A stretch of 64,000 nt of DNA from a virus. Both the position numbers and the translations under genes were made by a program. Shown here one piece after another: positions 1,748 through 50,043 of this stretch (its first letter is position 1; every line of letters starts with the position of its first letter). The DNA is taken from IMG/VR virus record IMGVR_UViG_3300040801_004532, positions 1-64,000 of that record; one strand, given 5' to 3'. The notes beneath the pieces are model-generated. The model worked only from the letters and a program-made list of their open reading frames with translations, searched no databases and was not told the DNA's origin.

Positions 1748-1756
1748 TAGTACTCC

Positions 1757-3676: not shown

Positions 3677-3686
3677 TAAATAACTC

Positions 3687-4571: not shown

Positions 4572-4593
4572 TTAACTCCTCTTAAATTTTAAA

Positions 4594-6120
4594 TTATGGA
4601 CAGCTCCATTTATAAATATCCATCCAATCAGGTCTTGCTGGCCAAGCACAATTATTCATTGAAACATCGCTATATCCATATTTTTCTAAGAATGGGGTTC
4701 TTCTATCAACTGTTTCACCATCTGGGCAAGTTAGAACATCTTGATCGAATATTCCAGGATCATCACACCCATTAACCTTAACAGATGTTAAGCTATACCA
4801 GCATGCCTGTGCTGTATTTCCACCTGTACAATTTGTACAACTTATAGCACAACCCGAAGGAGAACCGCAATTTATTTGATTTACAGTTCCACATTTAACC
4901 ATAGTACCTGATGTACATTTTATTTTTTCTGTAATAATATTTCCACATGCATCTTCTACAGTTACAGTTGCAATACCACAAGCACTACTACTTGAATATA
5001 GGGTGTTTGTGGTTCCGACTGTCCTTAAACTTCCTAATGAGAATCCCTCCCCTGTTACAGACCAATCATAAAATCCACAATTGGAGTTTGTTGAAGTTGA
5101 ATCAATCGCAATTGTTACTGAGTCATTTGTTCCAATGACAGAAGCACTTAAATCATGATCCCACTCCATAACAATACATGAACTACAATCAGTACCTCCT
5201 GCTCCCCAACTCCCAACATATCTTCCTGCATCGTCTGTTGCACCAACAGTTATATAACCAGATGCTCCCCCGGGGTCAGCAGTTAAGGTACAACCATTAG
5301 TATATGAACCAATTGTAAAACCACTTCCGCTACCAGATTCTTGATAGCAATTATATGGAGGAAGTCCACCATCAATTTCTAAATATATAGTCTCTCCTGG
5401 TTCAACTGAGTCAGGAGAGGTTTGTGAAAATTCTAAAGTTGGATTTCCAATTTGGTCATAGTCTTTTAAAAGAAAATCAATAATATATGTCTTATCAACT
5501 GGACCGTTTACCTTGATTTTAAAACCTGTTGTTGTCTTATCAAATACCAATGCCTTATAAAAAGTATATGGAGGATCCACTGCATAACATTGTGTTATAG
5601 ATACTGTATATTGATTATGAGGTCTTGGCGATGTAAAGGTTAGAGATGCGGTTGTATCTGATGAGGTTGTATCAAATACTAAAGCTCCAGCTAAAACTAT
5701 TAATGAACTTGAGTCTGAAGGAATAAACGATTCTCCGGATGTTCCTGATGTACCAGATGTTCCTGATGTTCCTGGATCTCCCGAAGTCCCACTCGTTCCA
5801 CTCGTTCCTGATGTTGACCCACTTGTTCCTGATGTGCCAGATGTTCCAGAAGATCCCGAAATTCCCGAAGATCCGCCAGTACCAGAAGTTCCTGATGATC
5901 CACTTGTACCCGATGTCCCCGATGTACCGGAAGGAGACCAATCATCCAAATCCTGTCTGGTTACAAACGTATTGCCTGCAGTTCCATCAATACCTGAAAC
6001 TGGAGTTTGATCTGTTCTTACGAAGTAATCATCATAATAAATTCTTCCTTGGTCATTATCACCAAGTTTAATATCTTCATCAGCTCCGAAGAACACATCG
6101 CCTTTTCTAAATTTTGGCAT
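4594..6120 (-). CDS. Tail-fibre-like protein with collagen-like repeats and a Cys-rich C-terminal domain
   Basis: 508 aa. GTSGTSGSSG tract. C-terminal paralogous motif CGFYDWSVTGEGFSLGSLRTVGTTNTLY…ACG. Confidence 0.6.
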   Translation of the reverse strand: MPKFRKGDVFFGADEDIKLGDNDQGRIYYDDYFVRTDQTPVSGIDGTAGNTFVTRQDLDDWSPSGTSGTSGTSGSSGTSGTGGSSGISGSSGTSGTSGTSGSTSGTSGTSGTSGDPGTSGTSGTSGTSGESFIPSDSSSLIVLAGALVFDTTSSDTTASLTFTSPRPHNQYTVSITQCYAVDPPYTFYKALVFDKTTTGFKIKVNGPVDKTYIIDFLLKDYDQIGNPTLEFSQTSPDSVEPGETIYLEIDGGLPPYNCYQESGSGSGFTIGSYTNGCTLTADPGGASGYITVGATDDAGRYVGSWGAGGTDCSSCIVMEWDHDLSASVIGTNDSVTIAIDSTSTNSNCGFYDWSVTGEGFSLGSLRTVGTTNTLYSSSSACGIATVTVEDACGNIITEKIKCTSGTMVKCGTVNQINCGSPSGCAISCTNCTGGNTAQACWYSLTSVKVNGCDDPGIFDQDVLTCPDGETVDRRTPFLEKYGYSDVSMNNCAWPARPDWMDIYKWSCP

Positions 6121-7491: not shown

Positions 7492-10400
7492 TTAGATTAT
7501 GTAGAAATCACTTCCGTCGCTTACAAATGTATATGCTGAATTGTAAGCATCAATTGATTTAGAAGCAAGCCCATCAATTGTTCCCGGTGTTGTTGAAACA
7601 ATTACACTATTCGAATCAGAAGTAATTTTCTTAATTGTAATTTGCGCATCAACCCCTTCAAATAGATCAATATTAACGTCACCTGCTGTTGTATCAACAA
7701 GTAGAATTTCACCATTCACTGCTGTAGTATCTGAGCTAACATATTTAACTTCTCTAAGTGTGTCAATTGAGGTATCAACATATGTCTTAACTGCTTGCTC
7801 AGTCGGAACTGCAGAATCAGAGTTGTCAGTTAATGTTCCATCGGTTGAAAATTCATTTACAGTTGCTCCAGTTGATAAATATAAGCCAGTTGAATAGAGT
7901 GTAGCTGCTGCTTGAGTATCAACATAGAATCTGATATCTGGATTAGATTTTCCTCCTTCCCAAACGTTGATGAAGGTATTTGAGTCTGCTCTTACAAAAG
8001 TTCCGACTCCATCATTCTCAAATATAGTTGTACCCCCACGGAAAATTTTAAGGGATGGAGTTACTGAGTCATCTGCATCAAAATAAGTACTACCACTAAT
8101 TCCAAAAGTAGCACGAGATCCAGCATAAGCTGTTATATTAGTATCAGCTAATATATCTACATTTGCTCCTGTTTCAGTAGCATATAGATAAAGATATCCT
8201 GATGATCCTTCTAAATAAACATAAGTTTCATCCCCAGCTAATCCTAATCCAATCCAATCCTGTGAGTCAGTATCACAATAAATATAATTATTGCTTCCAG
8301 ATAGATTTGTATAATCACCAACATCAAAGAGAGAAACTCCATCACTTTGAACGAAAGATGTTGTAGCTGCTGCTCCAGTGGAGTCCACATAAAACATATA
8401 ATTAGGAGTTTGCCCTATTAAAATGTCTGGATTAGAAGCATCCACATATGCTTTAACAGCTTTTTCAGTTGGGATTGCACTATCTGAATTTCCAGACAAA
8501 GTCCCATCAGTTGAAAATTCATTTACAGTTGCTCCAGTTGTTAAAGTTAGACCAAACTCTGTAAATGTCGCAGCAACAACGCTTGATTCACTTACTGTAA
8601 TTATATTTGATGTTTGATCAATGGAAACATATGCTTCAGATTCATCACCAAGATTAATTCGTTCCTCATTTGCATCAAGAATTACTCTTGTATCAATATA
8701 ACCATATAGATATTCATCTGTAACTAATAATCTTCCTGCTGCTGATGCTTTTCCAATTCTTTGAGTTGAAGAATCAGGATCAAAATGAGCAACTTCAACT
8801 CCATCGGTTACAATTGTTACATAACCAGATGCTGTTCCATCATCTACAACTTCAACATATGAGTCACCTTCGTAAATTTTGTCTCTAGCAACTTGTCCTG
8901 TTGCTTGATCAACATAGGTTTTTACTGCTTTTTCAGTTGGAACTGCATCATCGGAGTTCCCTACTAATGTCCCATCAGTTGAAAATTCATTTATAGATGC
9001 CCCCGAGGCTAATGTCAGACCCTCAGAAGTGAATGTACCAACTGTAGATGCTGCAACATTCATAGTAATATATTCAGGGGCTACTTCAGCATCAGTTGCA
9101 CCAATTTCAATATAATTATTTGGATCATAAAAAACAGATGTAATTCCTCCAGCAATTTTCTCAAATGCTTTATCATTGCCTGAATAAAGGGAAATGCTTT
9201 CTGAAGCTGTAGAGTCCTGTCCAGTACTTATCTTTAAATAACTTCCTACATCTGTAGAACCAAAATAATTATAAGTATAATCTATATCCATGAAAACTTG
9301 CTCACTAAAACCGGTACCAACAGTGTAAGTAAGTTTTGCATTGTCTCCCGCAACAGAGGAATCAACTTTTATTTCTCCTCCGAGAGTTCCCAACCTAATA
9401 TTTGGATCACCACCTTCTGGATCATTTGCTTCAAAATAAGCACGACCTTCTAGAGCTGTACCCAAATAACCATAATCATACACCGTTAGGGTTATTCCGC
9501 CATAATTTGAATCCGCAGTAATAGAACCGTCAGCGGCTATATCTATCACAGCATCTGTTGCTGTAGCATAGATATAAGTATTACCATCCCCGTCTATATA
9601 ATAGTAAGACAAATCGTTTGCCGCTCCTATTCCTACCCATGTAGAACTTCTATAAAGATAAGGAACAGACCCTGTATTATTCGTATAATCCCCAGCATCA
9701 AAAATTGATGATCCATTAGTGATAATTGAACCTGATGTTACAGCCATCTCATTAGATGCACCAATGTTAAGTTGAATCTGTGTATCTGAAACTTCAATTC
9801 TTCCTGCTGCTGATGCTTTTCCAATTCTTTGAGTTGATGATGATGGATCAAAGTGTGCAACTTCAACTCCATCGGTTACAATAGTTACATAACCAGTAGA
9901 AGTTCCGTCATCTACAACTTCAACATAGGAGTCCCCTTCATAAATCTTATCTAAAGAAATCCCTGAAGTTGCATTATCTACATAGGTTTTTACTGCTTTT
10001 TCTGTAGGAATTACATTATCTGAATTTCCTAGTAATGTTCCGTCAATTGAAAACTCATTTACTGAAGTTCCAGATTGAAGTGAAACTCCAGAAGCAGCAA
10101 TTGTCATGACTCCGGTTGTAGCAATACTCATAGAAATTTGAGCGTCTGTTACTTCAATCCTTCCCGCACCGACTGCTTTACCAATTCTTTGTGTTGAAGC
10201 ATCTGGATCAAAATATGCAACTTGAACTCCATCAGTTACAATTTCAACATACCCAGTTGCAGTTCCATCATCACCAATTCTTACATATGAGTCACCACTG
10301 GCCATTGTAACTTCATCAAGAACGTTATCAATTGTAATATAAGCGTCACCAGCAGTGTCAAATCTCTTTTCAGTATCATTCCACCATGGAACTCTTAGAT

Positions 10401-11310
10401 TTACTGGAACATCTTCTCTAGTTGCAACCGCTTGTGTATCACCCACTTCCCCAATTCTGAATGTATCTGAGTCTTCCGAAAAGATAAATTGATAATTTGG
10501 TTCTGTGCCTCGATCTACTTCCATGCCAGCGGTTCCGGCTGTAACACCAGGACCTGTTTCGCCATCATTCACAACAATAATATTATCTGATGTAGTTACC
10601 TGTTGATTATGAATAACGAAGGTTGTTCCGTCAACAAACAGATCCCCGCTTATGGATACGTCTTGTGAGAAAACTGTTGATTCGCCATCTGTTCGTATAA
10701 CTTCTTCGCCATCAATTACTGTAGTTACATACCCTTCCCCAGTATCAACGACCTCAACATAAGAATCACCTTCTGAAATTTGATCTGTAGAAATATTGCC
10801 AATTTCTGTATCAACGTATGTTTTTACTGCTTGTTCTGTAGGAACTGCATCATCCGAGTCTCCAGATAAAGTTCCATCAGTTGAAAATTCATTGATTGAT
10901 GTTCCGCCCGCCAATGTTAATCCATCTGATGTCCATGTTCCAACTGTAGCTGTATTAATCACAACTTCAACATACGCAGTATTTGTACCGTCATCAACAA
11001 CCTGAACCCTTGAGTCATCTTGTGTAATTCTATCTGCCGCAAGAGAAGCAAATTTATTGTCAACGTATGTTTTTACTGCTTGTTCAGTAGGAACAGCATC
11101 ATCTGAATTTCCTATTAAAGTTCCATCAATTGTAAATTCATTAATAGAAGCACCATTTGCCAATGTTAAACCATCAGCATTAAATGTTGCAACTGTAGCG
11201 TTATCAATTTCGATTAAAGCTCGGCTATTTGATACATCGTCGATAACTCTGACTCTACTATCAGAGTCAAAAATTTGATCGAAAATGTTCCATCTTGGAC
11301 TATAAGCCAT
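7492..11310 (-). CDS. Giant repetitive tail-fibre protein (1272 aa)
   Basis: About 6 copies of the SINEFSTDGTL.GNSD.AVPTE.AVKTYVD motif. Near-identical internal ~55-aa duplication (IYEGDSYVEVVDDGT..GYVTIVTDGVEVAHFDP.SSTQRIGKASAAGR). Confidence 0.6.
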   Translation of the reverse strand: MAYSPRWNIFDQIFDSDSRVRVIDDVSNSRALIEIDNATVATFNADGLTLANGASINEFTIDGTLIGNSDDAVPTEQAVKTYVDNKFASLAADRITQDDSRVQVVDDGTNTAYVEVVINTATVGTWTSDGLTLAGGTSINEFSTDGTLSGDSDDAVPTEQAVKTYVDTEIGNISTDQISEGDSYVEVVDTGEGYVTTVIDGEEVIRTDGESTVFSQDVSISGDLFVDGTTFVIHNQQVTTSDNIIVVNDGETGPGVTAGTAGMEVDRGTEPNYQFIFSEDSDTFRIGEVGDTQAVATREDVPVNLRVPWWNDTEKRFDTAGDAYITIDNVLDEVTMASGDSYVRIGDDGTATGYVEIVTDGVQVAYFDPDASTQRIGKAVGAGRIEVTDAQISMSIATTGVMTIAASGVSLQSGTSVNEFSIDGTLLGNSDNVIPTEKAVKTYVDNATSGISLDKIYEGDSYVEVVDDGTSTGYVTIVTDGVEVAHFDPSSSTQRIGKASAAGRIEVSDTQIQLNIGASNEMAVTSGSIITNGSSIFDAGDYTNNTGSVPYLYRSSTWVGIGAANDLSYYYIDGDGNTYIYATATDAVIDIAADGSITADSNYGGITLTVYDYGYLGTALEGRAYFEANDPEGGDPNIRLGTLGGEIKVDSSVAGDNAKLTYTVGTGFSEQVFMDIDYTYNYFGSTDVGSYLKISTGQDSTASESISLYSGNDKAFEKIAGGITSVFYDPNNYIEIGATDAEVAPEYITMNVAASTVGTFTSEGLTLASGASINEFSTDGTLVGNSDDAVPTEKAVKTYVDQATGQVARDKIYEGDSYVEVVDDGTASGYVTIVTDGVEVAHFDPDSSTQRIGKASAAGRLLVTDEYLYGYIDTRVILDANEERINLGDESEAYVSIDQTSNIITVSESSVVAATFTEFGLTLTTGATVNEFSTDGTLSGNSDSAIPTEKAVKAYVDASNPDILIGQTPNYMFYVDSTGAAATTSFVQSDGVSLFDVGDYTNLSGSNNYIYCDTDSQDWIGLGLAGDETYVYLEGSSGYLYLYATETGANVDILADTNITAYAGSRATFGISGSTYFDADDSVTPSLKIFRGGTTIFENDGVGTFVRADSNTFINVWEGGKSNPDIRFYVDTQAAATLYSTGLYLSTGATVNEFSTDGTLTDNSDSAVPTEQAVKTYVDTSIDTLREVKYVSSDTTAVNGEILLVDTTAGDVNIDLFEGVDAQITIKKITSDSNSVIVSTTPGTIDGLASKSIDAYNSAYTFVSDGSDFYII

Positions 11311-23787: not shown

Positions 23788-24603
23788 ATGATTGAAATAG
23801 ATACCTTTCTTGAAATAGGAAGTCAACATCGAATGTGTGAGGATTATATCATTCAGGGAAACGATCCCACGCAATATATAATTTTGGCTGATGGTTGTAG
23901 TTCAGCCAACAATACAGAGATGGGCGCAAGAATTTTATGCCATCTTGCAAAACAATATCTTAAATACCGGGGCGAAGATAATCTATATTCTATTGGTTAT
24001 TCAGACCTTGGTAACTGGGTTATCTATAATGCAGAATTAATTGCAAGGCAGATGGGGTTATCATTATCTTCTTTAACTTCAACCTTGATTGTTTCATTTA
24101 TAAGAGATGGAATGGTTAAGGTTTTTATGTACGGAGATGGTTGTATTATAACAACATCCCCCAACCATGATAGTATAGAGATCACTAGAGTTGACTTTGA
24201 GGGGAATGCTCCATATTATTTGGTTTATCGGGTAGATAAAGAAAGAGGACAAATCTATCACGAAAATTGCCCAGAAAAAATTACATCTATAAATTTCTCA
24301 ACCAAAACAGATTTACCATATACCAATCGTTGTGCTTACGATTATCCCAGCGAATTTACATATTTAATGTCCACACATCCATTGATCATGATCGCATCAG
24401 ATGGGCTGTTTTCATTTTTGATGGGTAATGGTTCATCTGATTTAATAGACCCGATGGACCTTTTAAAAGGCGGATTTATTTCTTTTAAAAATACAAAAGG
24501 TTCTTTCCTCCAAAGAAGACTTAACAAATATATGAAACATCTATCAAAAGATGGAATCGCCCATTTTGATGATTTATCAGTAGGAGCATATTTAAAAAAG
24601 TAG
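23788..24603 (+). CDS. PP2C-like Ser/Thr phosphatase (divergent)
   Basis: ILADGCSS…G (DGxGG-like), STLIVSF…YGDGCII, IASDGLFSFL (SDGL motif). Confidence 0.4.
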   Translation: MIEIDTFLEIGSQHRMCEDYIIQGNDPTQYIILADGCSSANNTEMGARILCHLAKQYLKYRGEDNLYSIGYSDLGNWVIYNAELIARQMGLSLSSLTSTLIVSFIRDGMVKVFMYGDGCIITTSPNHDSIEITRVDFEGNAPYYLVYRVDKERGQIYHENCPEKITSINFSTKTDLPYTNRCAYDYPSEFTYLMSTHPLIMIASDGLFSFLMGNGSSDLIDPMDLLKGGFISFKNTKGSFLQRRLNKYMKHLSKDGIAHFDDLSVGAYLKK

Positions 24604-32293: not shown

Positions 32294-32704
32294 TTACTGT
32301 TTTTGGTAGGCTTGTTTTTTTATTTCTTTGAATCTATTTGAAAAGAATTTAATCTGATCAGAAATTTTCATCATTCTACCAGAAACCTTTTCTTTACATT
32401 TCTCAGGATTTTTGGCTTTTTGACATTTTGCCATATTCTGTTTTAATTTTTGAAGTTGAAGATTTTTAGCCGTTATCCTTGCTTTTAACATACATAAGGC
32501 TTTTTCTTCGGGCGGCAACGTGCCACATTGTCTAGCTGCTTTTGTAAAATAGTCTTTATATATTTTAAATCCATGTTGTAAAATACTAACTGCAGATAAT
32601 CCAATCCCAACTGCTGCTAGAGGAACAACCTCATCAACATAATTCAAGTGATCAAGATACTCATCAACTAGAATATGTTTTTCCATATTACACCCATCTA
32701 TCAA
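32294..32704 (-). CDS. hypothetical Lys/Cys-rich protein (paralogue of 33370..33912)
   Basis: Shared YK.Y..AA..CG…KC…P..CK.K motifs. Confidence 0.3.
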   Translation of the reverse strand: MIDGCNMEKHILVDEYLDHLNYVDEVVPLAAVGIGLSAVSILQHGFKIYKDYFTKAARQCGTLPPEEKALCMLKARITAKNLQLQKLKQNMAKCQKAKNPEKCKEKVSGRMMKISDQIKFFSNRFKEIKKQAYQKQ

Positions 32705-33350
32705 AGAAAGTATATACCTTCTTTTCGATTAATTTATCAAAATAATCTGGCATAAAACATTGTCCATTTACACAAACAAGACCATTTCTATTTTCAAAAA
32801 GCATGCTTTGCTCAAATTTCATTTCGTTAAAATCAACAACTGCTGCTTGATGTGATGGAGAAGAAACACAATCAAAGGCAATAATTGTTAGAGGAGCTTT
32901 AACCTCATTATAATCAGTTCGTCTTTCTAATTCCGCCAGCCCTCTCATGCTAAATCCAACGCCGGTTTTATCTCTCAATAACCCAAGAAGAATCCCACCA
33001 TTTGGAGTGCTTGTTGTTTCCATTTCAGCATACAACATGTTATTTCTAAATTCATAATCACGAATAATATGAGAAACTTTTTCAAGAGAAACGGTAGTTT
33101 GCCTAATACCATCAACCTGGTTATTTCCAGTTGGTAGTGGATGATCAAGTTCTGAATAAAATGCTCTTCGTCTCATTCTTGACTCGCAATTAGTCATTCC
33201 TTCAGAAAGGACAGAAGAAGGATATAATCTATGGTTCTGATTTACTTCATCCACGGTTTGAATTGGGCATCTGAAGATGGCTTTTGCGGGGGTTTCCCTA
33301 ACCATCTGTGCCTCTGCCAATACAGTACCTTCAATAATTAGCTTACCCAT
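32688..33350 (-). CDS. putative prohead protease / prohead core protein
   Basis: 220 aa. Assigned by position only, between scaffold-like genes and the capsid candidate as in T4 gene order. Confidence 0.25.
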   Translation of the reverse strand: MGKLIIEGTVLAEAQMVRETPAKAIFRCPIQTVDEVNQNHRLYPSSVLSEGMTNCESRMRRRAFYSELDHPLPTGNNQVDGIRQTTVSLEKVSHIIRDYEFRNNMLYAEMETTSTPNGGILLGLLRDKTGVGFSMRGLAELERRTDYNEVKAPLTIIAFDCVSSPSHQAAVVDFNEMKFEQSMLFENRNGLVCVNGQCFMPDYFDKLIEKKVYTFFDRWV

Positions 33351-39198: not shown

Positions 39199-40701
39199 TT
39201 AAAGCATTCCTCCCATTCCTGTGAATGTCATTAATTCACAATGACCATCACTATTCTTTTTATCACTTGAATCTCTATTACTTTTTCTTGTTGCACTAAT
39301 AAATTTAAACCTTTCAAAATCAACCTTAAAATCAATCGCTACATTACTTTGTCCTGATCTGTTTTTTCCAATCTTGCCATGAACAAGATTATCATCAACT
39401 GGATCCTTAGCTAAAAGACCAACAAAATCAGCATGTTCTACTTTTTTGATTGATTCTGAAATTTGATCAACTCCAAGCTCTTTAGAGTCATTAATTTTAT
39501 ATGCAGAACGACCCAATTGAGTTGCAGTTATAATTGGTATATTATATTGAACAGCAAGGGTTTTTAATGCTAATGCAATATGCCCAAGCTCTAATCTATA
39601 TATATCATATCTAGTATCTGTTTTTAATAAATCTAGATAATCAACATAAAGTCCTGCAATTTTAGAATTTGGATATTGATCAATGGTATCATCAATAACA
39701 CCCATAAGATCCAATGGACTCATTGAAGTGGGTGGGAAATATTTCATTATGATTGTTGCGCTATTTTCATCAAGACGATCAAAAATCCTCTTTTTAATAT
39801 CTACCTTTTGACTAATCTCTGTTAGAAATTGTTTAATTGTTACATCAAATAATGGTTGATATGTTCTCATTAAAGATTCTTCAATTGTATTTTCCATAGT
39901 TACATAAATGAAAACATTATGAACCTCGCCTTTAACTGGTTGCTTTGCTTCTGGGATTGCTCTCATAGCGGTCGATGTTGCAGAAAATATAATTGAGTTA
40001 TTTAAAATTGTTGATTTCCCTGCTCCAGACCCCCCACCCCAAACATACAACCTTGAAGGTTCATACCCCCCAAATAAAATTTCATCAAGAAGAGGAAATC
40101 CAGTTGGGGTTTTATTTACCCTGTCATATTTCCTAAGGATCATTTCTTTAACACTATCAAAATCATCTTTATATAAATCGAGTGATGCTGCAGCCTCTAT
40201 TGCCATCGCTCTGTTATTTTCCATCATATTTGAATAAAGCTGTTTTATTGTAACCTCATAGTCTTCAATCAAATCATCAATTGAGTCAAATGATCCATCT
40301 TTAATTGACTCCAAAACCTTATCTAGATCATCATAATTTTTAAACAGAGAATTAATTTTCTTTCTTAATCTAACCTGTTTTACAATGTCCTGAAATACTG
40401 ATTCTTTTAATTCCTCGTGAATTTTTGAATCTAGAAAATCTTTGTGTTGGTTAAATTTTTCACTAAAAGCAATACTGTCTAGAACATTCTCGATAGTCTT
40501 ATCCTCAAGAAGAAGTTGGCAAATTGTCTTGAGACAATCTAATTTTGATTTTATTGTGACAGGAATTTCAAATGCCTGTTTGGATTCACTAAATAGAAGA
40601 ATATCTAATAAATCTCGATATAAAGCTTTTGTCTTTTTGATTCTTGAATTTTTATTAAGAATTAATGTAAAACAAGAATTTAGAAACGACTCTGTTATCA
40701 T
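39199..40701 (-). CDS. Replicative DNA helicase (DnaB / gp41 family)
   Basis: Walker A GGGSGAGKST, Walker B YVDYLDLL (DnaB IDYLQLM), H3-like IITATQLGRS. Confidence 0.55.
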   Translation of the reverse strand: MITESFLNSCFTLILNKNSRIKKTKALYRDLLDILLFSESKQAFEIPVTIKSKLDCLKTICQLLLEDKTIENVLDSIAFSEKFNQHKDFLDSKIHEELKESVFQDIVKQVRLRKKINSLFKNYDDLDKVLESIKDGSFDSIDDLIEDYEVTIKQLYSNMMENNRAMAIEAAASLDLYKDDFDSVKEMILRKYDRVNKTPTGFPLLDEILFGGYEPSRLYVWGGGSGAGKSTILNNSIIFSATSTAMRAIPEAKQPVKGEVHNVFIYVTMENTIEESLMRTYQPLFDVTIKQFLTEISQKVDIKKRIFDRLDENSATIIMKYFPPTSMSPLDLMGVIDDTIDQYPNSKIAGLYVDYLDLLKTDTRYDIYRLELGHIALALKTLAVQYNIPIITATQLGRSAYKINDSKELGVDQISESIKKVEHADFVGLLAKDPVDDNLVHGKIGKNRSGQSNVAIDFKVDFERFKFISATRKSNRDSSDKKNSDGHCELMTFTGMGGML

Positions 40702-40709
40702 TAATGATT

Positions 40710-41093
40710 TTACCTCTTCTTTTTGATTTTTTGTTCCAATGTCGAATTAAACATTTCCATGATTTTCTTATCTACTTCCTCAGCAATCTTTTCTGACATA
40801 ATATCTATTATAGATTTTCCCTCTATATAAATATCACTAGCAGAGATAGTATTTGAAAATGCCATAGAATCATCCATAGAAAAAGAAACAAACCCCTCAT
40901 CTTTTTCTCCTGTGGCATTACTAATCCAATCAACCTTCCCTTTTCCTTGGCATTTTCTACAAAAAGGCGTGATGATATAATTAGAATTTTGATCTACATC
41001 TTTTTCTGTTCCTTTTCCGCCACAATGGTCACATATAAGTTCGCCTTCATTGATAACAACCTTTTGACCTTTTGCATTAACCAAATCTTCCAT
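40710..41093 (-). CDS. CxxCxGxG zinc-finger protein
   Basis: CDHCGGKG…CRKCQGKGKVDWI. Confidence 0.4.
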   Translation of the reverse strand: MEDLVNAKGQKVVINEGELICDHCGGKGTEKDVDQNSNYIITPFCRKCQGKGKVDWISNATGEKDEGFVSFSMDDSMAFSNTISASDIYIEGKSIIDIMSEKIAEEVDKKIMEMFNSTLEQKIKKKR

Positions 41094-41348
41094 TTATTCC
41101 GCCTTTTTTCCCACTGCTTTTTCAATCCAATCAATTTTTCCTGACCCAAGACAATGGTGACAGACCAACATAGTATTGTTTGGTACCTTTGGAAATTTTG
41201 ATGTTTTAATAAATTTTGCCCTCCTCACCAAACCACTACCACCACACGTTCTACAAAACTCCTGCCCTTCTTCAAGGGCAATGTAAGTTTTGTTATAAGC
41301 ATTATATCTTTTATTCATGGAAAGGCAATACCCTCGATTTATCATCAA
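41094..41348 (-). CDS. CxxCxGxG zinc-finger protein (paralogue)
   Basis: CRTCGGSG…CHHCLGSGKIDWIEKAVG. Confidence 0.4.
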   Translation of the reverse strand: MMINRGYCLSMNKRYNAYNKTYIALEEGQEFCRTCGGSGLVRRAKFIKTSKFPKVPNNTMLVCHHCLGSGKIDWIEKAVGKKAE

Positions 41349-42708
41349 GATCTACAAACTCATCTTTGGATAAATATTTCTTTACCAAATAATGACAATA
41401 ATCCTCATCTAAACTAGCTAAGACATTAAGGGATCTTGGGATACTATGAGCTTTAACTTTTTGTTTTCTTGTTAATTTTCCTTGGTTTAAAATCCTTGTA
41501 GCTTCTAAACATTCTCTATAAAATTCTTCTTCGTCACCAGATTCATAAATTGGATAAACACGTTCTGCAAATTCTCTCATACCTTGTTGAATATCTGTAT
41601 ATAAATCCAATGTATATAATATTGAATAGACCTTAACATCTTCCCAAAATGTATTTCTACTTGGATCATAAATCCCATCAACATTAATCTTTGAAAACCC
41701 CCACTTATCGGATAGACGATCAAAAATTCTTTGTGTCATATCATGAACAGATAGATCCTTTAAAAATCTCAGATCAAGTCTATCGCTTTTGATACTCATT
41801 TTTCTAATGTAGCCATATTCATCTGCAACATGCATAAACCTTGCGTGCATTACCTGCTTATAAATACCCGATGAATCATAAGTAATGTTCAAATCAATTC
41901 CATGTTTCTTTTTAATAACGACACTAAACAATTCATAAAACAATACATCCCTGAAATTTGCACCACCAAGAATATGAAAATTTAAATGTTTGAATCCATG
42001 TCTTATGGCTTCATTTACAAGCGGAACAATAGGAAGGATATAAATCACACATGGGATTGACATATCACTAGACATATTCGCAACAATTCCGCCTGTACCA
42101 TGATACTTAAAATGTCTGAACATATCATGGTCTCTTAGGAGCTTCGTATAAATTTCCCAAAGTTTGGGGGTACGAAAATGATGAACATATATAATCTTAT
42201 CACGAACATGATCAGGAAGAGATTTGGCTTTTTCATATGACTCAAGATTTAATTTATAAACATCATCAAAATTATGAAAAATCTTGCAACCAGGTCCCGG
42301 AGGAATATCAAGAATAAATGCTTTATCATAAACATCTGCATACTCAACAAGCCACTCATAATATAATTTATAAAGCAAATCAGATTCTGCTCTTGTTAAT
42401 CTTCCAATTGAAATCTGAAAGCCACCACTATCTGCAATCAAATTACAATTATCAAAGAGTCCCCACTCTCGACACTTCCTATATAAATCACCTTCTCGTT
42501 GTTTATATTTATCAAATTTTTTCTTTCCGCCAAAATCCTGACCAAATGAATGAAGAAACCCGGCAGTTGTTTTAGAAAGAAAGTTTGATATGTCTTCTCT
42601 CGTAAAATTATTGTTAAATCTCCCTCTTCGTCCTTCGATAAAATTTTCAAGAATAGTTGCAAGCGTCTCAAATCCTGCTAGAACATATCCACTTCTTTTA
42701 ACATCCAT
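41311..42708 (-). CDS. dpdA: tRNA-guanine-transglycosylase-family protein (DpdA-like DNA 7-deazaguanine transglycosylase)
   Basis: DSGGFQ motif (IADSGGFQISIG). HILGGANFRDV region like TGT LHLxGVG. Confidence 0.5.
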   Translation of the reverse strand: MDVKRSGYVLAGFETLATILENFIEGRRGRFNNNFTREDISNFLSKTTAGFLHSFGQDFGGKKKFDKYKQREGDLYRKCREWGLFDNCNLIADSGGFQISIGRLTRAESDLLYKLYYEWLVEYADVYDKAFILDIPPGPGCKIFHNFDDVYKLNLESYEKAKSLPDHVRDKIIYVHHFRTPKLWEIYTKLLRDHDMFRHFKYHGTGGIVANMSSDMSIPCVIYILPIVPLVNEAIRHGFKHLNFHILGGANFRDVLFYELFSVVIKKKHGIDLNITYDSSGIYKQVMHARFMHVADEYGYIRKMSIKSDRLDLRFLKDLSVHDMTQRIFDRLSDKWGFSKINVDGIYDPSRNTFWEDVKVYSILYTLDLYTDIQQGMREFAERVYPIYESGDEEEFYRECLEATRILNQGKLTRKQKVKAHSIPRSLNVLASLDEDYCHYLVKKYLSKDEFVDLDDKSRVLPFHE

Positions 42709-43140
42709 TCAAATACCCCCCACCCTCCCCAATTCTGTCATTCCCTTTGAGTATGGACTTGTGGCAGCACCACTAGTTCCCGAAATCCCAGCAAATCCAA
42801 TTGATCCAGATACTCCCGATGGTCCAACACATCCACTTGTTCCAGATGTACCCATATAACCAGAAGACCCATTATAATCTGGAGGTTCAACTCCAGTAGC
42901 TTGTTCAATCCAATCTAATTTTCTTTTTCCCCAACATTTAGGGCAAATTGAAATATTCCTACATATTGATCCATCCTTCCTCGCTAATTCAATTGCTCCA
43001 CGCCCACCACAAATGGGGCACACAATTTCTCCCAAATCTTCATCTAGTTCAATTTCGCTTATTCCAGCACCATTGAAAGGGGTGCGTTTAGAAATAACTT
43101 CACCATTTAGATATTTTTTAAAATTATCTAATATTCCCAT
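42709..43140 (-). CDS. Zinc-finger (CxxCxGxG) protein with a collagen-like C-terminus
   Basis: CPICGGRG…CPKCWGKRKLDWIEQATG followed by GSSGYMGTSGTSG…. Confidence 0.45.
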   Translation of the reverse strand: MGILDNFKKYLNGEVISKRTPFNGAGISEIELDEDLGEIVCPICGGRGAIELARKDGSICRNISICPKCWGKRKLDWIEQATGVEPPDYNGSSGYMGTSGTSGCVGPSGVSGSIGFAGISGTSGAATSPYSKGMTELGRVGGI

Positions 43141-43151
43141 TTATTCACCAC

Positions 43152-43676
43152 CTACAATTTTTCTATTACAATACTACCACCAGTGGACGAATCAAATTCC
43201 ATTGCACATTTTAACGCCAACTCAATTCGTTTTACTGGTTCCATATCATTGTTTAGTTCTTGTATTGCTTTCAAAGATCCCAAAGCATATGTACCGCCAG
43301 ATCCAATAGCAGTAAATTCATCCACGGTACTAATATGAAAATCAACCAAAATTTCATATAGCTGCTTTTTGTAACCAATAATAAGATTGGATACCCACGC
43401 TTCAGTTTGGTCGTCTGTAATAGCAAGACATCCCTTTTCTCGACAATGATTTCTCAGATAATCAGGGAAGTCAAGTATATCTTCTGGAGGGTCAAAAAAT
43501 TTAGAATGTAAAATTTGACACCCCCTTGCGCTGCCAACTGCACCCAGCAAATAATTTCCAACTCTAAATATTTTTTGGGCTTTAATGGGACGAATGTCAC
43601 CGCCTTCAGACGATCCTCTGGTATCTGCTCCTATATAAACATTTCCCTTATGTTTTATTCCTACAACACATGACAT
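43152..43676 (-). CDS. HslV-like Ntn-hydrolase peptidase (proteasome beta-like)
   Basis: MSCVVGIKHKGNVYIGADTRGS…AIGSGGTYALGSLKA aligns along E. coli HslV. Ser replaces the Thr1 nucleophile. Confidence 0.6.
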   Translation of the reverse strand: MSCVVGIKHKGNVYIGADTRGSSEGGDIRPIKAQKIFRVGNYLLGAVGSARGCQILHSKFFDPPEDILDFPDYLRNHCREKGCLAITDDQTEAWVSNLIIGYKKQLYEILVDFHISTVDEFTAIGSGGTYALGSLKAIQELNNDMEPVKRIELALKCAMEFDSSTGGSIVIEKL

Positions 43677-43677
43677 T

Positions 43678-44478
43678 TTATTCCCCCTTTAATTTCATAT
43701 CATCTCTCATCCTAAGACATTTTGCTAGATCAAATGAGTAGTCGTATATATGTAACCCTTTACTTGAAGCAAATATTTCTCCATCTTCAATCCCAATCTC
43801 TTCTGTAATATATTCCTTTAATAATTGAATACCAGCAAGATTTGCAGGGAATCCTCCCCATAGGTCCCACGATCTGAAATATGGATAAAAGTGAAGTTTT
43901 CCATCTTGAATCCTTGTATCAATGTGTCTTAAACATGGAGGATCTTGTAAAAGCATATCAGTTGGATGTGCAACTTGTAAAACCATTTGATTATTTCTGT
44001 AACCTTTATTTTTATATGTCCAAATTAACAGTTCAATTTGATTTAAATGCCAATGACCGGTAGAATAAATAATGCCAAGATCAATTAATTCCTCAATTTC
44101 CTCTATGAGAATATTTGGCCAATGACCCTCCTTATATAAATGTAAGGGATAATTTATTGGATACGCAGTTAACCTTTGACCATATGTATATGATTCCCCA
44201 TCTTTTAATGCTCCAGTCATCAAATACGGAAGGTATTCATCTAGATAATCATCAGCTACAGGGTTTGGAATATTATGGTGTGCTTCTATCTGAGGTAAAA
44301 GAGGTTTTGACCAGGGATGTTTAATATGAACATTTACCCAATCAAATTCTAATCTTTTTTGCCCAGCATATGATCCCCGGTCAATTTTAAATACTGAACC
44401 TTCTTCAAGGATTCTAAAAAGAGTTTGAAACCAAGCATCTCCTAAATCTCTGGCTTCAATCGTTTGAACATTAAGCAT
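43678..44478 (-). CDS. Thymidylate-synthase-family enzyme (ThyA or dNMP hydroxymethylase)
   Basis: PC…DGKL…RSWDLWGGFPANLAGIQLL…G…HIY aligns with the ThyA catalytic region. Asn is present at the N177-equivalent position. Confidence 0.55.
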   Translation of the reverse strand: MLNVQTIEARDLGDAWFQTLFRILEEGSVFKIDRGSYAGQKRLEFDWVNVHIKHPWSKPLLPQIEAHHNIPNPVADDYLDEYLPYLMTGALKDGESYTYGQRLTAYPINYPLHLYKEGHWPNILIEEIEELIDLGIIYSTGHWHLNQIELLIWTYKNKGYRNNQMVLQVAHPTDMLLQDPPCLRHIDTRIQDGKLHFYPYFRSWDLWGGFPANLAGIQLLKEYITEEIGIEDGEIFASSKGLHIYDYSFDLAKCLRMRDDMKLKGE

Positions 44479-44490
44479 TATCTATTCCTT

Positions 44491-44817
44491 TCATGATATA
44501 ATTTTAGAATCTTCTTTTGGGGCTTCAAGGGTAAATTCATCAAGTGATTCTCGAGTTTTCTCATCTATAAGAAAACCATAAATTTCGTCAACCTTTAAAA
44601 CCTTCAAGAGGGATTTCCCAATTACCACATCCATTCCACCACGAGGATGCATAACAAGAATATCTCCTTTATTTATACCTTCAACTTTTAATCCAACAGA
44701 TAGAACCTTGCCATATGCTTGTGGATCCTGAACAGTTTCCGGAAGGATTATTCCTCCTGACGATTTACTTCTCTTCAGAACTTGTACTATAACTTTGTCT
44801 TCGATTGCTTCGATCAT
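44491..44817 (-). CDS. groES: Co-chaperonin GroES (Cpn10) homologue
   Basis: IEAIEDKVIVQ…KSSGGIILPE…GKVLSVG pattern. Confidence 0.55.
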   Translation of the reverse strand: MIEAIEDKVIVQVLKRSKSSGGIILPETVQDPQAYGKVLSVGLKVEGINKGDILVMHPRGGMDVVIGKSLLKVLKVDEIYGFLIDEKTRESLDEFTLEAPKEDSKIIS

Positions 44818-45124
44818 TTTGTTTAGCTCCCTTCTTTTGCTTCTTTTTTTTACGAATGATTTTTTCTTTCAACTTCTCCAACTTTTCTTCTTCTTTTTGT
44901 ATTGCTCTTATAGATTGGACTTTTTTTCTTCTTTTCCTATCGCTAGGTTTCTCATAATACATCTTTTCTCTAAACTCTTTGGCAATACCACTCTTTGAAA
45001 ATTTCTTACGAAAGCGTTTTAAAAGTTCTTCATCACTCTCGTCTTTTCTACGAACTACACATATTCCTGTGTGTTCATCAGGATAATAATGTTTATGATA
45101 AGTCATAGCTTGAATATTTGCCAC
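44765..45124 (-). CDS. rpsU: Ribosomal protein bS21 homologue (phage-encoded)
   Basis: VVRR…ELLKRFRKKFSKSGIAKEFREKMYYEKPSDRKRRKK aligns with bacterial S21. Confidence 0.55.
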   Translation of the reverse strand: MANIQAMTYHKHYYPDEHTGICVVRRKDESDEELLKRFRKKFSKSGIAKEFREKMYYEKPSDRKRRKKVQSIRAIQKEEEKLEKLKEKIIRKKKKQKKGAKQNDRSNRRQSYSTSSEEK

Positions 45125-45133
45125 CTCCCTTCA

Positions 45134-45805
45134 TTATACAAATCCATAAATTATATGGTCTCTCGATGAAAAGCTGAAACCATATTTCTCGCAAATATCA
45201 AAAACAGCTGCAGAATTTTTAATGAGATCTACCCTGGTTGTTCCCTCAGGCATAACCCAAACTCTATGGTTCCAACTAAGGTTTTTATAATTAGCGGAAA
45301 TATTGGCCAAAAACTTTTCAATCAACGGACTATCATCATATACAACTTTTATATAAACTTCTGGAAAACTTTCTAGAAGTTTAACATTTTGTAGTGCTGA
45401 TGATAGATCACTATCATTAAAGATTTTTGGCGAATAAACATATCTAACATGTTTATCAGGAGAAACCTCTTGAATTAACTGGAACAATTTATACCCATTT
45501 GATTCAACATTTGCAATTGGATAGTCCAGCTCATTAAGTAATAAAGCGGCTTCATCAAAATGTTTTGGAACCGTTGGTTCTCCACCTGTAATCAAAAGTC
45601 CTGCATTTGTTCTATAAATTGTATCTTGAATATCTGAAAGAAGATGCGGAGCCTCTGCTGAGATTCTCATTTTTACAGAGGTATCACACCAAGGACATTT
45701 CAGATTACAAGTCTTAAATCTGAGAATGATCATTGGTCGCCCGCTATCAATTCCTTCGCCTTGCCATGAAATAAAATTTTCGATTAATTTAACACTTTTA
45801 CTCAT
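45134..45805 (-). CDS. queE: 7-carboxy-7-deazaguanine synthase QueE (radical SAM)
   Basis: WQGEG…CNLKCPWCDT…ITGGEP… Aligns with E. coli QueE and has the same length (223 aa). Confidence 0.65.
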   Translation of the reverse strand: MSKSVKLIENFISWQGEGIDSGRPMIILRFKTCNLKCPWCDTSVKMRISAEAPHLLSDIQDTIYRTNAGLLITGGEPTVPKHFDEAALLLNELDYPIANVESNGYKLFQLIQEVSPDKHVRYVYSPKIFNDSDLSSALQNVKLLESFPEVYIKVVYDDSPLIEKFLANISANYKNLSWNHRVWVMPEGTTRVDLIKNSAAVFDICEKYGFSFSSRDHIIYGFV

Positions 45806-45840
45806 TTATAATTTCCCCTTTCGTTTATTGTTTGTTCTGA

Positions 45841-48800
45841 TTATATAGTTAATAGTTCCGACTTTTCTCTTATATCAGTCAGCGGCTTAAGCATTAGCTC
45901 ATGCCTATCCATAAATGAAAATCTCAATGCTGCGTTTAAATCAGGGACAAAAAATGCTGGTAGCCTCCTTTCTTCATCGGGAATAGCAATTACCTCAAGT
46001 TTATTACCACGCCCAATAAATTTATCATATTTAGCTCTTATTTTTTCTCTTTCTTTATCATCTTGTATTTTATCAAAATCAATTCCTCTAACCCAGAACA
46101 TGTATGCCTTATTTCCAGGTCTATGAATATCATACATTATATTATTCCAGGCTTCCATAGCTCTAACGCCTTGTGGAATTGTTTTATAATCGCTTAGTTC
46201 TTTTCCCCAAGTTACAGGTCGAGCAATAGTTTTATCGCCTTGAATAATAAGATCTTTAAATTCCTTTTCTTTTCTTGACACATATTTTATAACTTTTGAT
46301 AATTTAAATTTTTCATCTTTCAGGATCAGCTCTGAAAGCTCTGATAAAAATTCTTTTGATTTACTTGGATAATCTGATCTTTTAATTTCAACACCCATAT
46401 AATTAATCTTATCAACTTCTTTTCCTTCGTTATTTATAACACGAATTGCATATCTCTTTTTAGCCAAAAACAATCCTCGTGAAATAACAAGCTCATTTTT
46501 TAATTCAAGGCGATTAAATTCTAAATTAACATTGTGTCGTTTAACCATTTCAACAATTCGATGTTTATTTAAAAATTCTTCAACCTCTTTACACCATCCT
46601 TGAATTTTCTCGACTGATAGATCTTTATTTTTAAACCCTCCAAAATAACAGAAAATTGAATCTGTATCGCCTGTTATTATATATTCGTTATTTCTTTCGG
46701 GCATTTCATCTGAGTACATTTCTTTTTTGGTTAAGGGATTGGGGTGCTCGTATTTTTCATTCTTGTCTATGTGCCTCATAAAAGCATCACCTTCAATAAT
46801 TGATGTTTTTAATGCCTCTTGTCCGGATAATGTTACGGCCCCTGCTACATCAATATCAAAAAATCTAAATGCCTTATTAGCTACAACTCCATATAATGTA
46901 TTTGCAAGGACCTTATAAACTAACTGTCTTGTATAAAAGAAATTTTCGGAATCTTTATCTTTTTCTTCAATCGCTTGAAACATCTCTTTTTTATATCTTT
47001 TTCTTGTTTTCATTAACATATCAACGACCTCACCAAAAACAGAAAACTCTTTTTCGTGTGGTAAAAAGAAACATCCGTTGATTGTATAAACTAAATTATT
47101 TTCTTTAACTTTTTTCATTAACTGGTCAGGAGTAATAACCATCTCTTTCTTTTCAAACAATGGATCATATACAACCTCAATTTTCTCCGGAAGATTTTCT
47201 GGATGATATGCTAATTCATAACCAAGATGTGAGTCTTTAGTTTTCATTACATAACTATTCACGCCAATGTTATATGTAATCATAATACTTGGGTATAGAG
47301 ATGCAAAGTCAAAGTCTGTAATCCAATCATATGCGCCTGGAATTGGACTAAAAACAAATGCCCCCGGATATTTTCCTTTTTCAGTATGAGGGTCAGAATT
47401 TTTTGAACCGAAACCTTTATTTCTAAGATATGATACCATCAACGAATCAATTTGACCAAATGATGATACAGAATCAAATGAAGTATTACAAATTATTCTT
47501 AACTCATTAAGCAGGTTAATATGAGCTAATTTATCATCAAGTTGCTCAAGGAGATCTGTATCCCGAATGTTATATTCAATTGTCTTATTAAACATTTTCC
47601 AATACATTTCATTGAAAGGTAAGGGCAGATCTATTTTTGTAATCCCCAACTCATGTTGTGCAATAAAACCAAGTTTATAATTTTCCATTTTTGTAAATGT
47701 AAATGTCCTATATAAAAAGTCCTGATCAATTGCTACACAACCAGGAATATGGCAAACATATTTTGAACCGTCAACATAAAACTCGCCAAATCTATTGAAC
47801 ATTGATTGCTTTAATCCAATCTTTGGCATTCTGTTATATATATATTCAAGGTCGAATGAAATACAGTTCCATCCTGCAATAAAATCAGGATCTTCACTTT
47901 TAAAATCTTTGGAAAATTCCCTCAACAGTTCCTTTTCTGTATTAAAAATTTTAAAATCAACCCCATCAATTTTTTCAATCGGTTCTGTTTTATTGTCAAC
48001 TACATAATGTGTTTTGGTTTTATTGAATATTGTTGTAAGCATATTAATTGGAAATTTGGCCTCTAGAGGACGGGGGAAAACTCGCTCATCCCCTGTATCT
48101 ACCTCAATATCGAAAAACATAATATTTGATTTAACTTTTTTAGCTTCGCCTTTACTGTAATGATAATAATCCATTGCATGTTTCGCTGTTATTCTGACAT
48201 CACCTTCGTATGTTATATCAGGATCTAAATTATATCTATCTCGGTATTTCACCTTAATTTGATTTAAATGATCATAAGGAACAATCTTCTTTCCTTGATG
48301 TCCCTTTTTTATTTGATAACAAACATAATCGTCATTCTCCGTATGATATATTTTTCTATTGTCCTTATCACGAAATATATAAAGGATTTGACTTGTTTTG
48401 TTAAGAAACTGAACATCAATCAATCTATAATCATCTGAATAAAATTGCTTTGGAATCTTATATCTAAATATTCCAGCCCCCATAGATTCAATATCATGAT
48501 GCGAAACCTCTATGTCTTTTCCACTCAACATTGTAGAAATTTGCCCCATCGCTTCTTCAAATTTTGGTTCCCAAACTCCCAAATTTCTATTGACAAACGA
48601 AGGATGAACTATTATGACAGTTTTAAACCCATTCCATTCTGTAACCTTGCCATGAATTTTTGTTATGCCTGATTTTCCCATTCCAAATGCAGACATAGGA
48701 CTTCCGCCCATAATAACAACAAGTTTTGGATTACAAATCTTTGTTATATTTATACAATTGATTTTGCAGTTTTTAATAACATCATCATCTGGGTTGCCGG

Positions 48801-49080
48801 TTGTTCCATCATCATTTAAGGTTTGACAAAGGACAACATTTGTAAGAAGGTAATTGCATTTATTTAAACCAAATTTATTAAAGTATTTTCTAAATAATTT
48901 CCCAGCCTTCCCGACTAATGGATTACCTTTTTTAACTTCTTCTTTACCAGGATTTTCTGCGATAAAAACTACATCTACTTTTGATAAATCATCTTCACAA
49001 TTTGTTTCAAGAATACACGAAGGGAATTCTAAAAGTTTACACTCGGCACAATTTGCAAAAGACTTTTTTATTGAAAACAA
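45841..49080 (-). CDS. Family B DNA polymerase with an N-terminal UDG-like (family 4) domain
   Basis: N-terminus VVFIAENPG…GNPLVGKAGKLF (UDG motif). FFDIEV (Exo I), DFASLYPSIM (motif A), K..ANTLYG (B), GDTDS (C). Confidence 0.85.
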   Translation of the reverse strand: MFSIKKSFANCAECKLLEFPSCILETNCEDDLSKVDVVFIAENPGKEEVKKGNPLVGKAGKLFRKYFNKFGLNKCNYLLTNVVLCQTLNDDGTTGNPDDDVIKNCKINCINITKICNPKLVVIMGGSPMSAFGMGKSGITKIHGKVTEWNGFKTVIIVHPSFVNRNLGVWEPKFEEAMGQISTMLSGKDIEVSHHDIESMGAGIFRYKIPKQFYSDDYRLIDVQFLNKTSQILYIFRDKDNRKIYHTENDDYVCYQIKKGHQGKKIVPYDHLNQIKVKYRDRYNLDPDITYEGDVRITAKHAMDYYHYSKGEAKKVKSNIMFFDIEVDTGDERVFPRPLEAKFPINMLTTIFNKTKTHYVVDNKTEPIEKIDGVDFKIFNTEKELLREFSKDFKSEDPDFIAGWNCISFDLEYIYNRMPKIGLKQSMFNRFGEFYVDGSKYVCHIPGCVAIDQDFLYRTFTFTKMENYKLGFIAQHELGITKIDLPLPFNEMYWKMFNKTIEYNIRDTDLLEQLDDKLAHINLLNELRIICNTSFDSVSSFGQIDSLMVSYLRNKGFGSKNSDPHTEKGKYPGAFVFSPIPGAYDWITDFDFASLYPSIMITYNIGVNSYVMKTKDSHLGYELAYHPENLPEKIEVVYDPLFEKKEMVITPDQLMKKVKENNLVYTINGCFFLPHEKEFSVFGEVVDMLMKTRKRYKKEMFQAIEEKDKDSENFFYTRQLVYKVLANTLYGVVANKAFRFFDIDVAGAVTLSGQEALKTSIIEGDAFMRHIDKNEKYEHPNPLTKKEMYSDEMPERNNEYIITGDTDSIFCYFGGFKNKDLSVEKIQGWCKEVEEFLNKHRIVEMVKRHNVNLEFNRLELKNELVISRGLFLAKKRYAIRVINNEGKEVDKINYMGVEIKRSDYPSKSKEFLSELSELILKDEKFKLSKVIKYVSRKEKEFKDLIIQGDKTIARPVTWGKELSDYKTIPQGVRAMEAWNNIMYDIHRPGNKAYMFWVRGIDFDKIQDDKEREKIRAKYDKFIGRGNKLEVIAIPDEERRLPAFFVPDLNAALRFSFMDRHELMLKPLTDIREKSELLTI

Positions 49081-49221
49081 ATAAATGCCTCCTCAGTTTA
49101 GTTTTGATTTTGTTCCGATTAAAAAAATAATTAACCATTTAAAAAAACATTCATCTATATATATTAATAAGTGAAAGTAGGTTGGGCGCCTAATATTTAT
49201 TACCGAAGAAAGGAGAACAGC

Positions 49222-50043
49222 ATGACCGAACATGAAACGACAGCAATTACCAAGCAAGACGTGGAAAAGGTTGTGTCAGTGATTTCGATCAATGACGCAG
49301 AAAAAATCCTCGGAATCAAAAACGAGCCTCCGTACGACATCAAAAAGCTCCTCCATGAGTATCACATCGGTTTTGAAGTTCTCATGGAAAACCGCGAGTT
49401 CAAAAAGCTTCGCCCTTTGACGGATGCCAAGAATATCATTCTTCGGCACCTCATCGAGAACCAAGTCGAAGAGAACGGCCGGTTCGACATGGAAGGGGTT
49501 ATTCCGTTTGAAGATGCTTGCACGTCTTGCCACGGCACCGGGGAATTATATAAATTCTTCCGGCGAGTCGTCACCCTCGATTGCAAATTCTGCGAGGGCG
49601 AGGGTGAAGTTACTTTAGAGTGCCGGGCCTGCGGCGGATCCGGTCGCTATATACGAGAGTACGGCGACCTGAAGATCGATGTGGCTTGCAAAAAATGCGA
49701 CAAAGATCCCGAAACCGGCGACCCCCTTGGGGTTGTGACTTACAAATGCCGGCGGTGTCGGGGAAAAGGAACATTCCGGAAAACCGTGATTGACAGCAAG
49801 ATCAAATCCACGACCCATTGTAAGGTTTGCAAGGGCCGGGGGTTCATCGTTCCGGATGATCGGTTCCCTCCCCGAAGGGGTCAAACGATTCAAATTGCCA
49901 ACCCGGTCATCAAGGAAAGCGACCTTGAATCAATCGGAAGCGTCATCAAGGAAAGCAAGCCGGAAGCGGCCGAAATCTCCATCGAGGAAGACAACCTGGA
50001 ATCACTCGAAAGCGCCATCAAGGATTCCCCCGCAAGCGAATAA
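49222..50043 (+). CDS. DnaJ-type CxxCxGxG zinc-finger repeat protein
   Basis: Six CxxC.G.G repeats. aaggag RBS. GC-richer than its neighbours. Confidence 0.5.
   Translation: MTEHETTAITKQDVEKVVSVISINDAEKILGIKNEPPYDIKKLLHEYHIGFEVLMENREFKKLRPLTDAKNIILRHLIENQVEENGRFDMEGVIPFEDACTSCHGTGELYKFFRRVVTLDCKFCEGEGEVTLECRACGGSGRYIREYGDLKIDVACKKCDKDPETGDPLGVVTYKCRRCRGKGTFRKTVIDSKIKSTTHCKVCKGRGFIVPDDRFPPRRGQTIQIANPVIKESDLESIGSVIKESKPEAAEISIEEDNLESLESAIKDSPASE

Follow-up and report, generated by a model that had tools for sequence, protein, structure and literature searches.

What is a proteasome-like peptidase doing in the genome of a phage, and does it act without a partner unfoldase? The question is raised by a 64,000-nucleotide stretch of viral DNA (positions 1 to 64,000 of IMG/VR record IMGVR_UViG_3300040801_004532; hereafter, the window), which encodes a 174-residue protein with Ser in place of the Thr1 nucleophile of the proteasome family. 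The window comes from a large T4-like phage and encodes a capsid protein of Gp23 type and a portal of Gp20 type; it is very distant from cultured phages (capsid identity ~25%). We identified the protein as a new member, within a Ser1 sub-clade, of a described and abundant family of phage-borne proteasome homologues. We put the probability that it is an active, orphan proteasome-family peptidase at roughly 0.8.

Similarity to HslV and proteasome profiles, on which a sequence-only reading of this DNA had staked its assignment, was highly significant: the protein scored 44.6 bits against the Pfam Proteasome model (PF00227, MEROPS T1; gathering cut-off 22.4) and aligned along its full length with PHROG_1040, 'peptidase HslV family' (residues 1-173, E 1.6e-24). 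Both HslV-like blocks that had been pointed out, GNVYIGADTRGS and AIGSGGTYA, were found in it. Searched as a single sequence, its best PDB matches were BPH (5.9e-5) and Thermotoga HslV (1.2e-4); with a family profile, these became 8e-15 and 2e-14 for BPH and 4e-14 for HslV. The protein has the alpha-beta-beta-alpha sandwich fold of N-terminal nucleophile (Ntn) hydrolases, with a clear helix H2 (residues 67-81) and an H1 reduced to one turn (residues 50-54) that is followed by a conserved Pro-containing loop. Structural comparison places the predicted peptidase nearer to BPH than to HslV. Its scores against the NCBI HslV equivalog TIGR03692 (26.1 bits; cut-off 157.75) and the HslV model NF003964 (25.3 bits versus 137) indicate, at the sequence level, that it is not HslV proper. 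The earlier observation was largely correct and its interpretation partly supported; the protein is collinear with HslV over its full length. Family hidden Markov models matched only this one open reading frame (ORF) in the window, with no second, alpha-like paralogous subunit.

The start codon of the peptidase gene could be fixed because all 44 full-length close homologues begin with Met-Ser. No in-frame start lies upstream, there is no propeptide, and a Shine-Dalgarno-like AAGGGGG motif ending 6 nt before the ATG fits this start. The ORF opens ATG-TCA-TGT, so that Ser-Cys follows Met, as had been read from the sequence. Across 46 close homologues (29-76% identity), Met1, Ser2, and Lys35 were invariant. 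We then aligned 201 relatives, a set made up of these close homologues, the top 150 cluster representatives, and 10 proteins from cultured phages. Residue 2 was Thr in 102 of these and Ser in 99, with no other residue found. The proteasome catalytic set is complete in the window protein (S2, D18, K35, G48, and S126, numbered with Met), and corresponds to residues with established catalytic roles in the proteasome and BPH (Thr1, Asp17, Lys33/37, Gly47/50, and Ser129/139; PMC5777263). Gly48 lies within a GAVGS motif that aligns with GLAGT of BPH. In the Gly-Ser-Gly (GSG) motif, G125 was conserved in 100% of relatives, G127 in 98%, and S126 in 68%, the others mostly having Cys or Ala; the equivalent of Ser126, Ser129 in the proteasome and Ser139 in BPH, hydrogen-bonds to residue 1 (PMC5777263).

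Among the 150 cluster representatives, 83 began with Met-Thr-Cys, and Ser was found mostly in the nearest relatives of the window protein. In 16 of the 201 sequences, the nearest neighbour carried the other residue, at identities of up to 55%. Position 2, occupied only by Thr or Ser and swapping repeatedly between them, is under selection and behaves as a working hydroxyl nucleophile would be expected to.

Comparison with known proteasome homologues refined the placement. The AAH/CPH group I proteins, probably the family of PHROG_1040, resemble the window peptidase in their length (~175-190 residues), in having neither a propeptide nor the C-terminal S12/H5 elements, and in their Thr1/Ser1-Asp17-Lys33-Gly47 set; they occur in tailed phages and prophages of many phyla without a co-occurring AAA+ partner (PMC8665760). 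Whereas the PHROG_1040 family mostly starts MTC, Ser1 is fixed in the window sub-clade. By size and phage host range, rather than by comparison with AAH reference sequences, the window peptidase most likely belongs to AAH; the hosts of its cultured-phage homologues (Firmicutes, Bacteroidetes, and Proteobacteria) fit the AAH description (PMC8665760). PPH proteins are likewise phage-borne group I homologues, but are ~140 residues long and lack H2, so PPH identity was ruled out by the 174-residue size and the H2 helix. PPH-sized proteins of Caulobacter phages CcrBL9 and CcrColossus reached TM scores of only ~0.57-0.58. Connectase identity was also rejected, as the loss of H1 and H2 together with a two-helix insertion between S3 and S4 was not found.

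The suggested likeness to Anbu- or BPH-type enzymes was borne out for BPH, which is the top PDB match and in which Ser1 is known, but not for Anbu, which has at its C-terminus a long helix H5 that makes a coiled coil, an element not seen here. Ser1 occurs in all BPH outside Betaproteobacteria, in one Anbu, and in Bacillus subtilis CodW (PMC5777263). BPH (PDB 5ovs and 5ovu) shares ~22-25% identity with the window peptidase and, like it, has no propeptide. Its Thr or Ser is exposed by Met removal, as Ser1 of the window protein would be, and it has no partner unfoldase; none was found for the window protein either, in the window or in 27 related loci. BPH is cellular rather than phage-borne, and its H1 is longer. 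Its pore loop between H2 and S7 is elongated and highly acidic (KEDEDDPYE), whereas the window protein aligns a short, partly acidic TDDQTEAW there, a stretch that the clade consensus does not conserve. HslV (ClpQ) and CodW match the window peptidase in fold, length, collinear alignment, and the GSG motif, and CodW shares its N-terminal Ser (PMC5777263). In contrast to HslV, the window peptidase fails the equivalog model, has no hslU gene adjoining it or in the window, and has an H1 truncated on the HslU-facing side.

The sequence-only reading had considered a phage-borne proteasome-like peptidase unusual, a view that the distribution of the family does not support. Of 1.84 billion cluster representatives, the clade profile matched 9,559 at E<=1e-3; the stricter thresholds of E<=1e-10 and E<=1e-30 left 6,070 and 613. 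A second search gave 1,867 clusters at 90% identity. Homologues were present in at least 20 cultured-phage records, annotated as 'peptidase HslV family', 'proteasome subunit', or 'Ntn hydrolase', from phages of Proteobacteria, Firmicutes, Bacteroidetes, Acidobacteria, and a methanogen. In BFVD, the fold recurs in 31 clusters of viral structures. Such proteins had also been described: Fuchs, Alva & Lupas (2021) reported 22 new proteasome homologues, among which PPH, AAH, and CPH are carried by phages and radiate from BPH; they noted Thr1 or Ser1 in the catalytic triad and found neither a co-occurring AAA+ partner nor an informative gene context (PMC8665760). Proteasome-like peptidases are thus common cargo of large phages, with thousands of sequence clusters. 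All members found of the sub-clade to which the window peptidase belongs come from a single lineage of uncultured T4-like phages. A scan of 185,579 species genomes for a cellular home of the clade found none; its one locus was a contig of a metagenome-assembled genome (MAG) that carries the same phage block as the window.

Two homologues were found on contigs labelled as archaeal. One lies in a block of PolB, QueE, S21, GroES, thymidylate synthase (TS)-like, peptidase, DpdA, and DnaB genes in a 'Thermoplasmatales archaeon' MAG (L016; DAOVGR010000022.1), and the other (P0020) on a 12.7-kb contig binned as 'Candidatus Heimdallarchaeaceae archaeon'. Because the S21, GroES, and DnaB proteins of the block are bacterial-type, these contigs suggest mis-binned bacteriophages rather than archaeal viruses. 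Among cultured phages, Vibrio phage vB_VpaM_R16F (L013, 3001-3989) has two adjoining 'nucleophile aminohydrolase' genes, while Pseudoalteromonas phage J2-1 (L010, 3001-4167) encodes a 388-residue protein in which a proteasome-like domain is followed by an acidic C-terminal extension of ~210 residues.

An HslU-like partner ATPase, raised as a possibility by the sequence-only reading, was absent from the 64-kb window. Using tblastn with E. coli HslU and ClpX queries (the HslU query gave 97% matches to Salmonella hslU), we found neither protein in the window or in 27 related loci. The sole Walker A motif in a plausible ATPase of the window belonged to the DnaB helicase, and no AAA+ Pfam domain was detected in the 20 largest window ORFs scanned; a 1272-residue ORF at 7492-11310, which lay outside the Pfam scans, was covered by the tblastn and Walker A scans. 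In 10 cultured phages and in four long metagenomic contigs (two of them chromosomal stretches of prophage or mobile-element origin), none of the genes beside the homologue was annotated as AAA+. The nearest ATPase-type genes were a generic 'ATPase' ~2.4 kb downstream in Moorella phage MTATph1 and a UvrD-type helicase ~5 kb upstream of the homologue in locus L019.

Taken as an active orphan peptidase, the protein could work as follows. Host methionine aminopeptidase would remove Met1, because Ser is a favoured second residue that permits cleavage by this enzyme. The freed Ser1 hydroxyl would then attack the peptide carbonyl, helped by its own amino group, Lys35, and Asp18, with the Gly48 backbone stabilising the oxyanion. 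Going by BPH and HslV, 12 or 14 subunits probably assemble into a double ring that encloses the active sites. With no dedicated phage-encoded unfoldase, its substrates would be peptides or unfolded proteins, or a host factor would be needed. The place of the gene in a co-directional block for replication and nucleotide metabolism points to a role in the infected cell rather than in the virion. For BPH, removal of the start Met was shown by mass spectrometry (PMC5777263).

Several points weigh against an active enzyme that works alone. BPH, the closest solved relative, is inert on standard substrates (PMC5777263), and we found no functional study of phage proteasome homologues in the literature. 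The short H1 and the loop after it change the surface through which HslV contacts HslU, and assembly might be affected as well. Finally, the window covers 64 kb of a 248-kb source contig, and a distant phage-encoded unfoldase may exist.

The 43152-44817 segment that drew attention to this locus holds three minus-strand ORFs, not two, since the TS-like gene stands between the peptidase gene and the GroES gene with which it had been paired. These belong to a longer co-directional block in the order PolB, QueE-like, bS21, GroES, TS-like, peptidase, zinc-finger/collagen-like ORF, DpdA/TGT-like, two DnaJ-type zinc-finger ORFs, and DnaB; this order is kept in 13 related loci from metagenomes or IMG/VR. 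Of the enzymes in the block, the peptidase diverges fastest: proteins encoded in these loci are 40-50% identical to the window copy for the peptidase, compared with 70-81% for the TS-like protein, 63-71% for PolB, and 56-76% for the DpdA-like protein. As its GC content (0.37) equals that of the window (0.365) and the synteny extends over 13 loci, the peptidase gene is a stable resident of this phage lineage. Scans of 40500-49300 for promoters and terminators gave signals at or below shuffle expectation, and no operon boundaries were drawn for this reason. PADLOC defence models gave no match.

Features of the window and the evidence for each (positions count from the first letter of the window)
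Feature	Positions	Strand	Evidence or remark
Proteasome-family Ntn hydrolase with Ser1, 174 residues	43152-43676	-	phage 'peptidase HslV family' (PHROG_1040)
Met1-Ser2 codons (ATG-TCA)	43671-43676	-	Ser is the predicted nucleophile; sequence and homologue conservation
Asp18 codon (proteasome Asp17)	43623-43625	-	Asp/Glu in 201/201; aligned to Asp of BPH GADxL
Lys35 codon (proteasome Lys33, BPH Lys37)	43572-43574	-	invariant in 201/201; aligned to BPH QK
Gly48 codon (oxyanion-hole Gly47)	43533-43535	-	Gly in 83% of family, mostly Ser/Thr otherwise
Gly125-Ser126-Gly127 codons (GSG motif)	43296-43304	-	aligned to IGSG of BPH and HslV
Shine-Dalgarno-like AAGGGGG	43683-43689	-	read from sequence; in 3' end of upstream TS-like ORF
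TS-family (TS-like) protein, 266 residues	43678-44478	-	Pfam Thymidylat_synt 2.3e-10
GroES (Cpn10) homologue, 108 residues	44491-44817	-	Pfam Cpn10 1.2e-10; phrog_3188 4.7e-11
bS21 homologue	44765-45124	-	Pfam 4e-12; long Lys/Arg-rich C-terminal tail
QueE-like radical-SAM protein	45134-45805	-	phrog_2076 1.3e-31
Family-B DNA polymerase (PolB), 1079 residues	45841-49080	-	
DpdA/TGT-like protein	41311-42708	-	phrog_887 3.5e-5; no Pfam match
Zinc-finger ORF	40710-41093	-	DnaJ-type CXXCXGXG motifs
Zinc-finger ORF	41094-41348	-	DnaJ-type CXXCXGXG motifs
Zinc-finger ORF	42709-43140	-	DnaJ-type CXXCXGXG motifs
Zinc-finger ORF	49171-50043	+	DnaJ-type CXXCXGXG motifs
gp21-type head maturation (prohead) protease	32688-33350		phrog_207 3.1e-23; between portal and major capsid genes
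Three neighbouring collagen-repeat ORFs (504, 668, and 508 residues)	233-6120	-	collagen triple-helix repeat near each N-terminus
SPFH/Band 7 domain protein, 588 residues	17120-18886	+	2.1e-7
PP2C-type protein phosphatase	23788-24603	+	Pfam 2.4e-11

The peptidase might instead be a functional HslV that docks on an HslU-type unfoldase, either hijacked from the host or encoded in the other 184 kb of the contig; in that case, the phage would gain an ATP-dependent protease of changed specificity. Its full-length collinearity with HslV at a similar size (174 versus ~175 residues) is in keeping with this, as is the precedent of CodW, a Ser1 HslV that works with an HslU partner (PMC5777263). Other jumbo phages do carry HslU-like genes (those of Erwinia, Salmonella, Prevotella, and others), but these groups differ from the carriers of the peptidase family. 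The score far below the equivalog cut-off, the truncated H1, and the lack of HslU or ClpX in the window and related loci all argue against HslU docking, as do a structure nearer to BPH, which lost the HslU interface (PMC5777263), and the lack of co-occurring AAA+ partners for these groups (PMC8665760). Together, these make docking improbable. We hold as tentative, and on balance rather unlikely, a role for the Ser1 homologue as a host-takeover or counter-defence protease, acting on specific host proteins without an ATPase or by commandeering host HslU. In other phages, the family sits in early gene islands that hold many repair and counter-defence-type genes, for example NADAR, Thg1, PARP, and PTH2. 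The faster divergence of the peptidase (40-50% versus 56-81%) and this early-island placement are compatible with an arms race at the host interface. If this is correct, the peptidase would become the first viral proteasome homologue to be assigned a function.

A non-proteolytic Ntn enzyme was also weighed, either a connectase-like ligase or transpeptidase, for which there is precedent in the same fold (PMC8665760), or a small-molecule amidohydrolase tied to the flanking DNA-modification genes (TS-like, DpdA-like, and QueE-like). A gap of 1 nt separates the stop codon of the TS-like gene from the peptidase ATG, and in 13 loci the TS-like, peptidase, and DpdA-like genes stand in this same order. 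Nucleotide-metabolism neighbours recur elsewhere: TS/DHFR in Geobacillus E3, ribonucleotide reductase in PhiF1 and J2-1, and thymidylate kinase in Tunturi_5. As the order of the whole block is conserved, adjacency inside it tells little about function; in two loci (L004 and L005) other small ORFs take the place of the direct TS-like neighbour, and in the wider family the neighbours vary each time, often being nucleotide-metabolism or early genes. We regard a non-proteolytic role as quite unlikely. Phages need maturation proteases, and processing of phage proteins had been proposed by the sequence-only reading, which could make the protein a prohead protease; failing that, it could be an inactive structural or decoy protein. 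A canonical T4 gp21-type protease is present, so head maturation does not need the peptidase, whose gene lies in the replication/metabolism block, outside the structural module. The strictly conserved catalytic set argues against an inactive protein, and we consider both of these roles highly improbable.

An active orphan peptidase therefore remains our preferred reading. What the window adds is a well-defined lineage with fixed Ser1 and a stable genomic position, and biochemistry could start from this lineage or from relatives in culture, among them Tenacibaculum phage pT24, which likewise has Ser1, and Geobacillus virus E3. The question of role belongs to the whole family of viral proteasome homologues; it is not made newly testable by this locus, and knowledge of the family is unchanged by the finding.

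The GroES homologue has a separate explanation. In T4, the phage co-chaperonin gp31 redirects host GroEL to fold the capsid protein. By analogy, the window GroES is best explained as a gp31-like helper in capsid folding, so there is no need to invoke the peptidase. The presence of a Gp23-type capsid gene fits this pattern, as does the lack of any Cpn60 match in scans of the large window ORFs. The bS21 gene overlaps the GroES gene at its start by 53 nt.

The best model for the TS-like protein was the methanogen-type TS TIGR03283 (108.9 bits, below the cut-off of 174.55). The protein keeps the PC(L)RH cysteine and RSxD...GxPxN motifs and is 70-81% identical across the phage clade. Because these motifs are kept, the protein may be either a TS or a DNA-modification enzyme of the pyrimidine-C5 hydroxymethylase type. 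The DpdA-like and QueE-like proteins together suggest 7-deazaguanine modification of phage DNA.

Among the remaining genes, the zinc-finger ORF that comes immediately after the peptidase gene has, in addition, a tail of collagen-like Gly-X-Y type, and the counterparts of the zinc-finger ORFs in syntenic loci share only 30-46% identity. The three collagen-repeat ORFs at the start of the window are probably fibre proteins. In locus L001, the polymerase homologue (68% identical) is fused to an N-terminal uracil-DNA-glycosylase-like domain (PF03167). The window also encodes an SPFH/Band 7 domain protein and a PP2C-type phosphatase; in Ochrobactrum phage OC, a Ser/Thr phosphatase gene adjoins that of the proteasome homologue.
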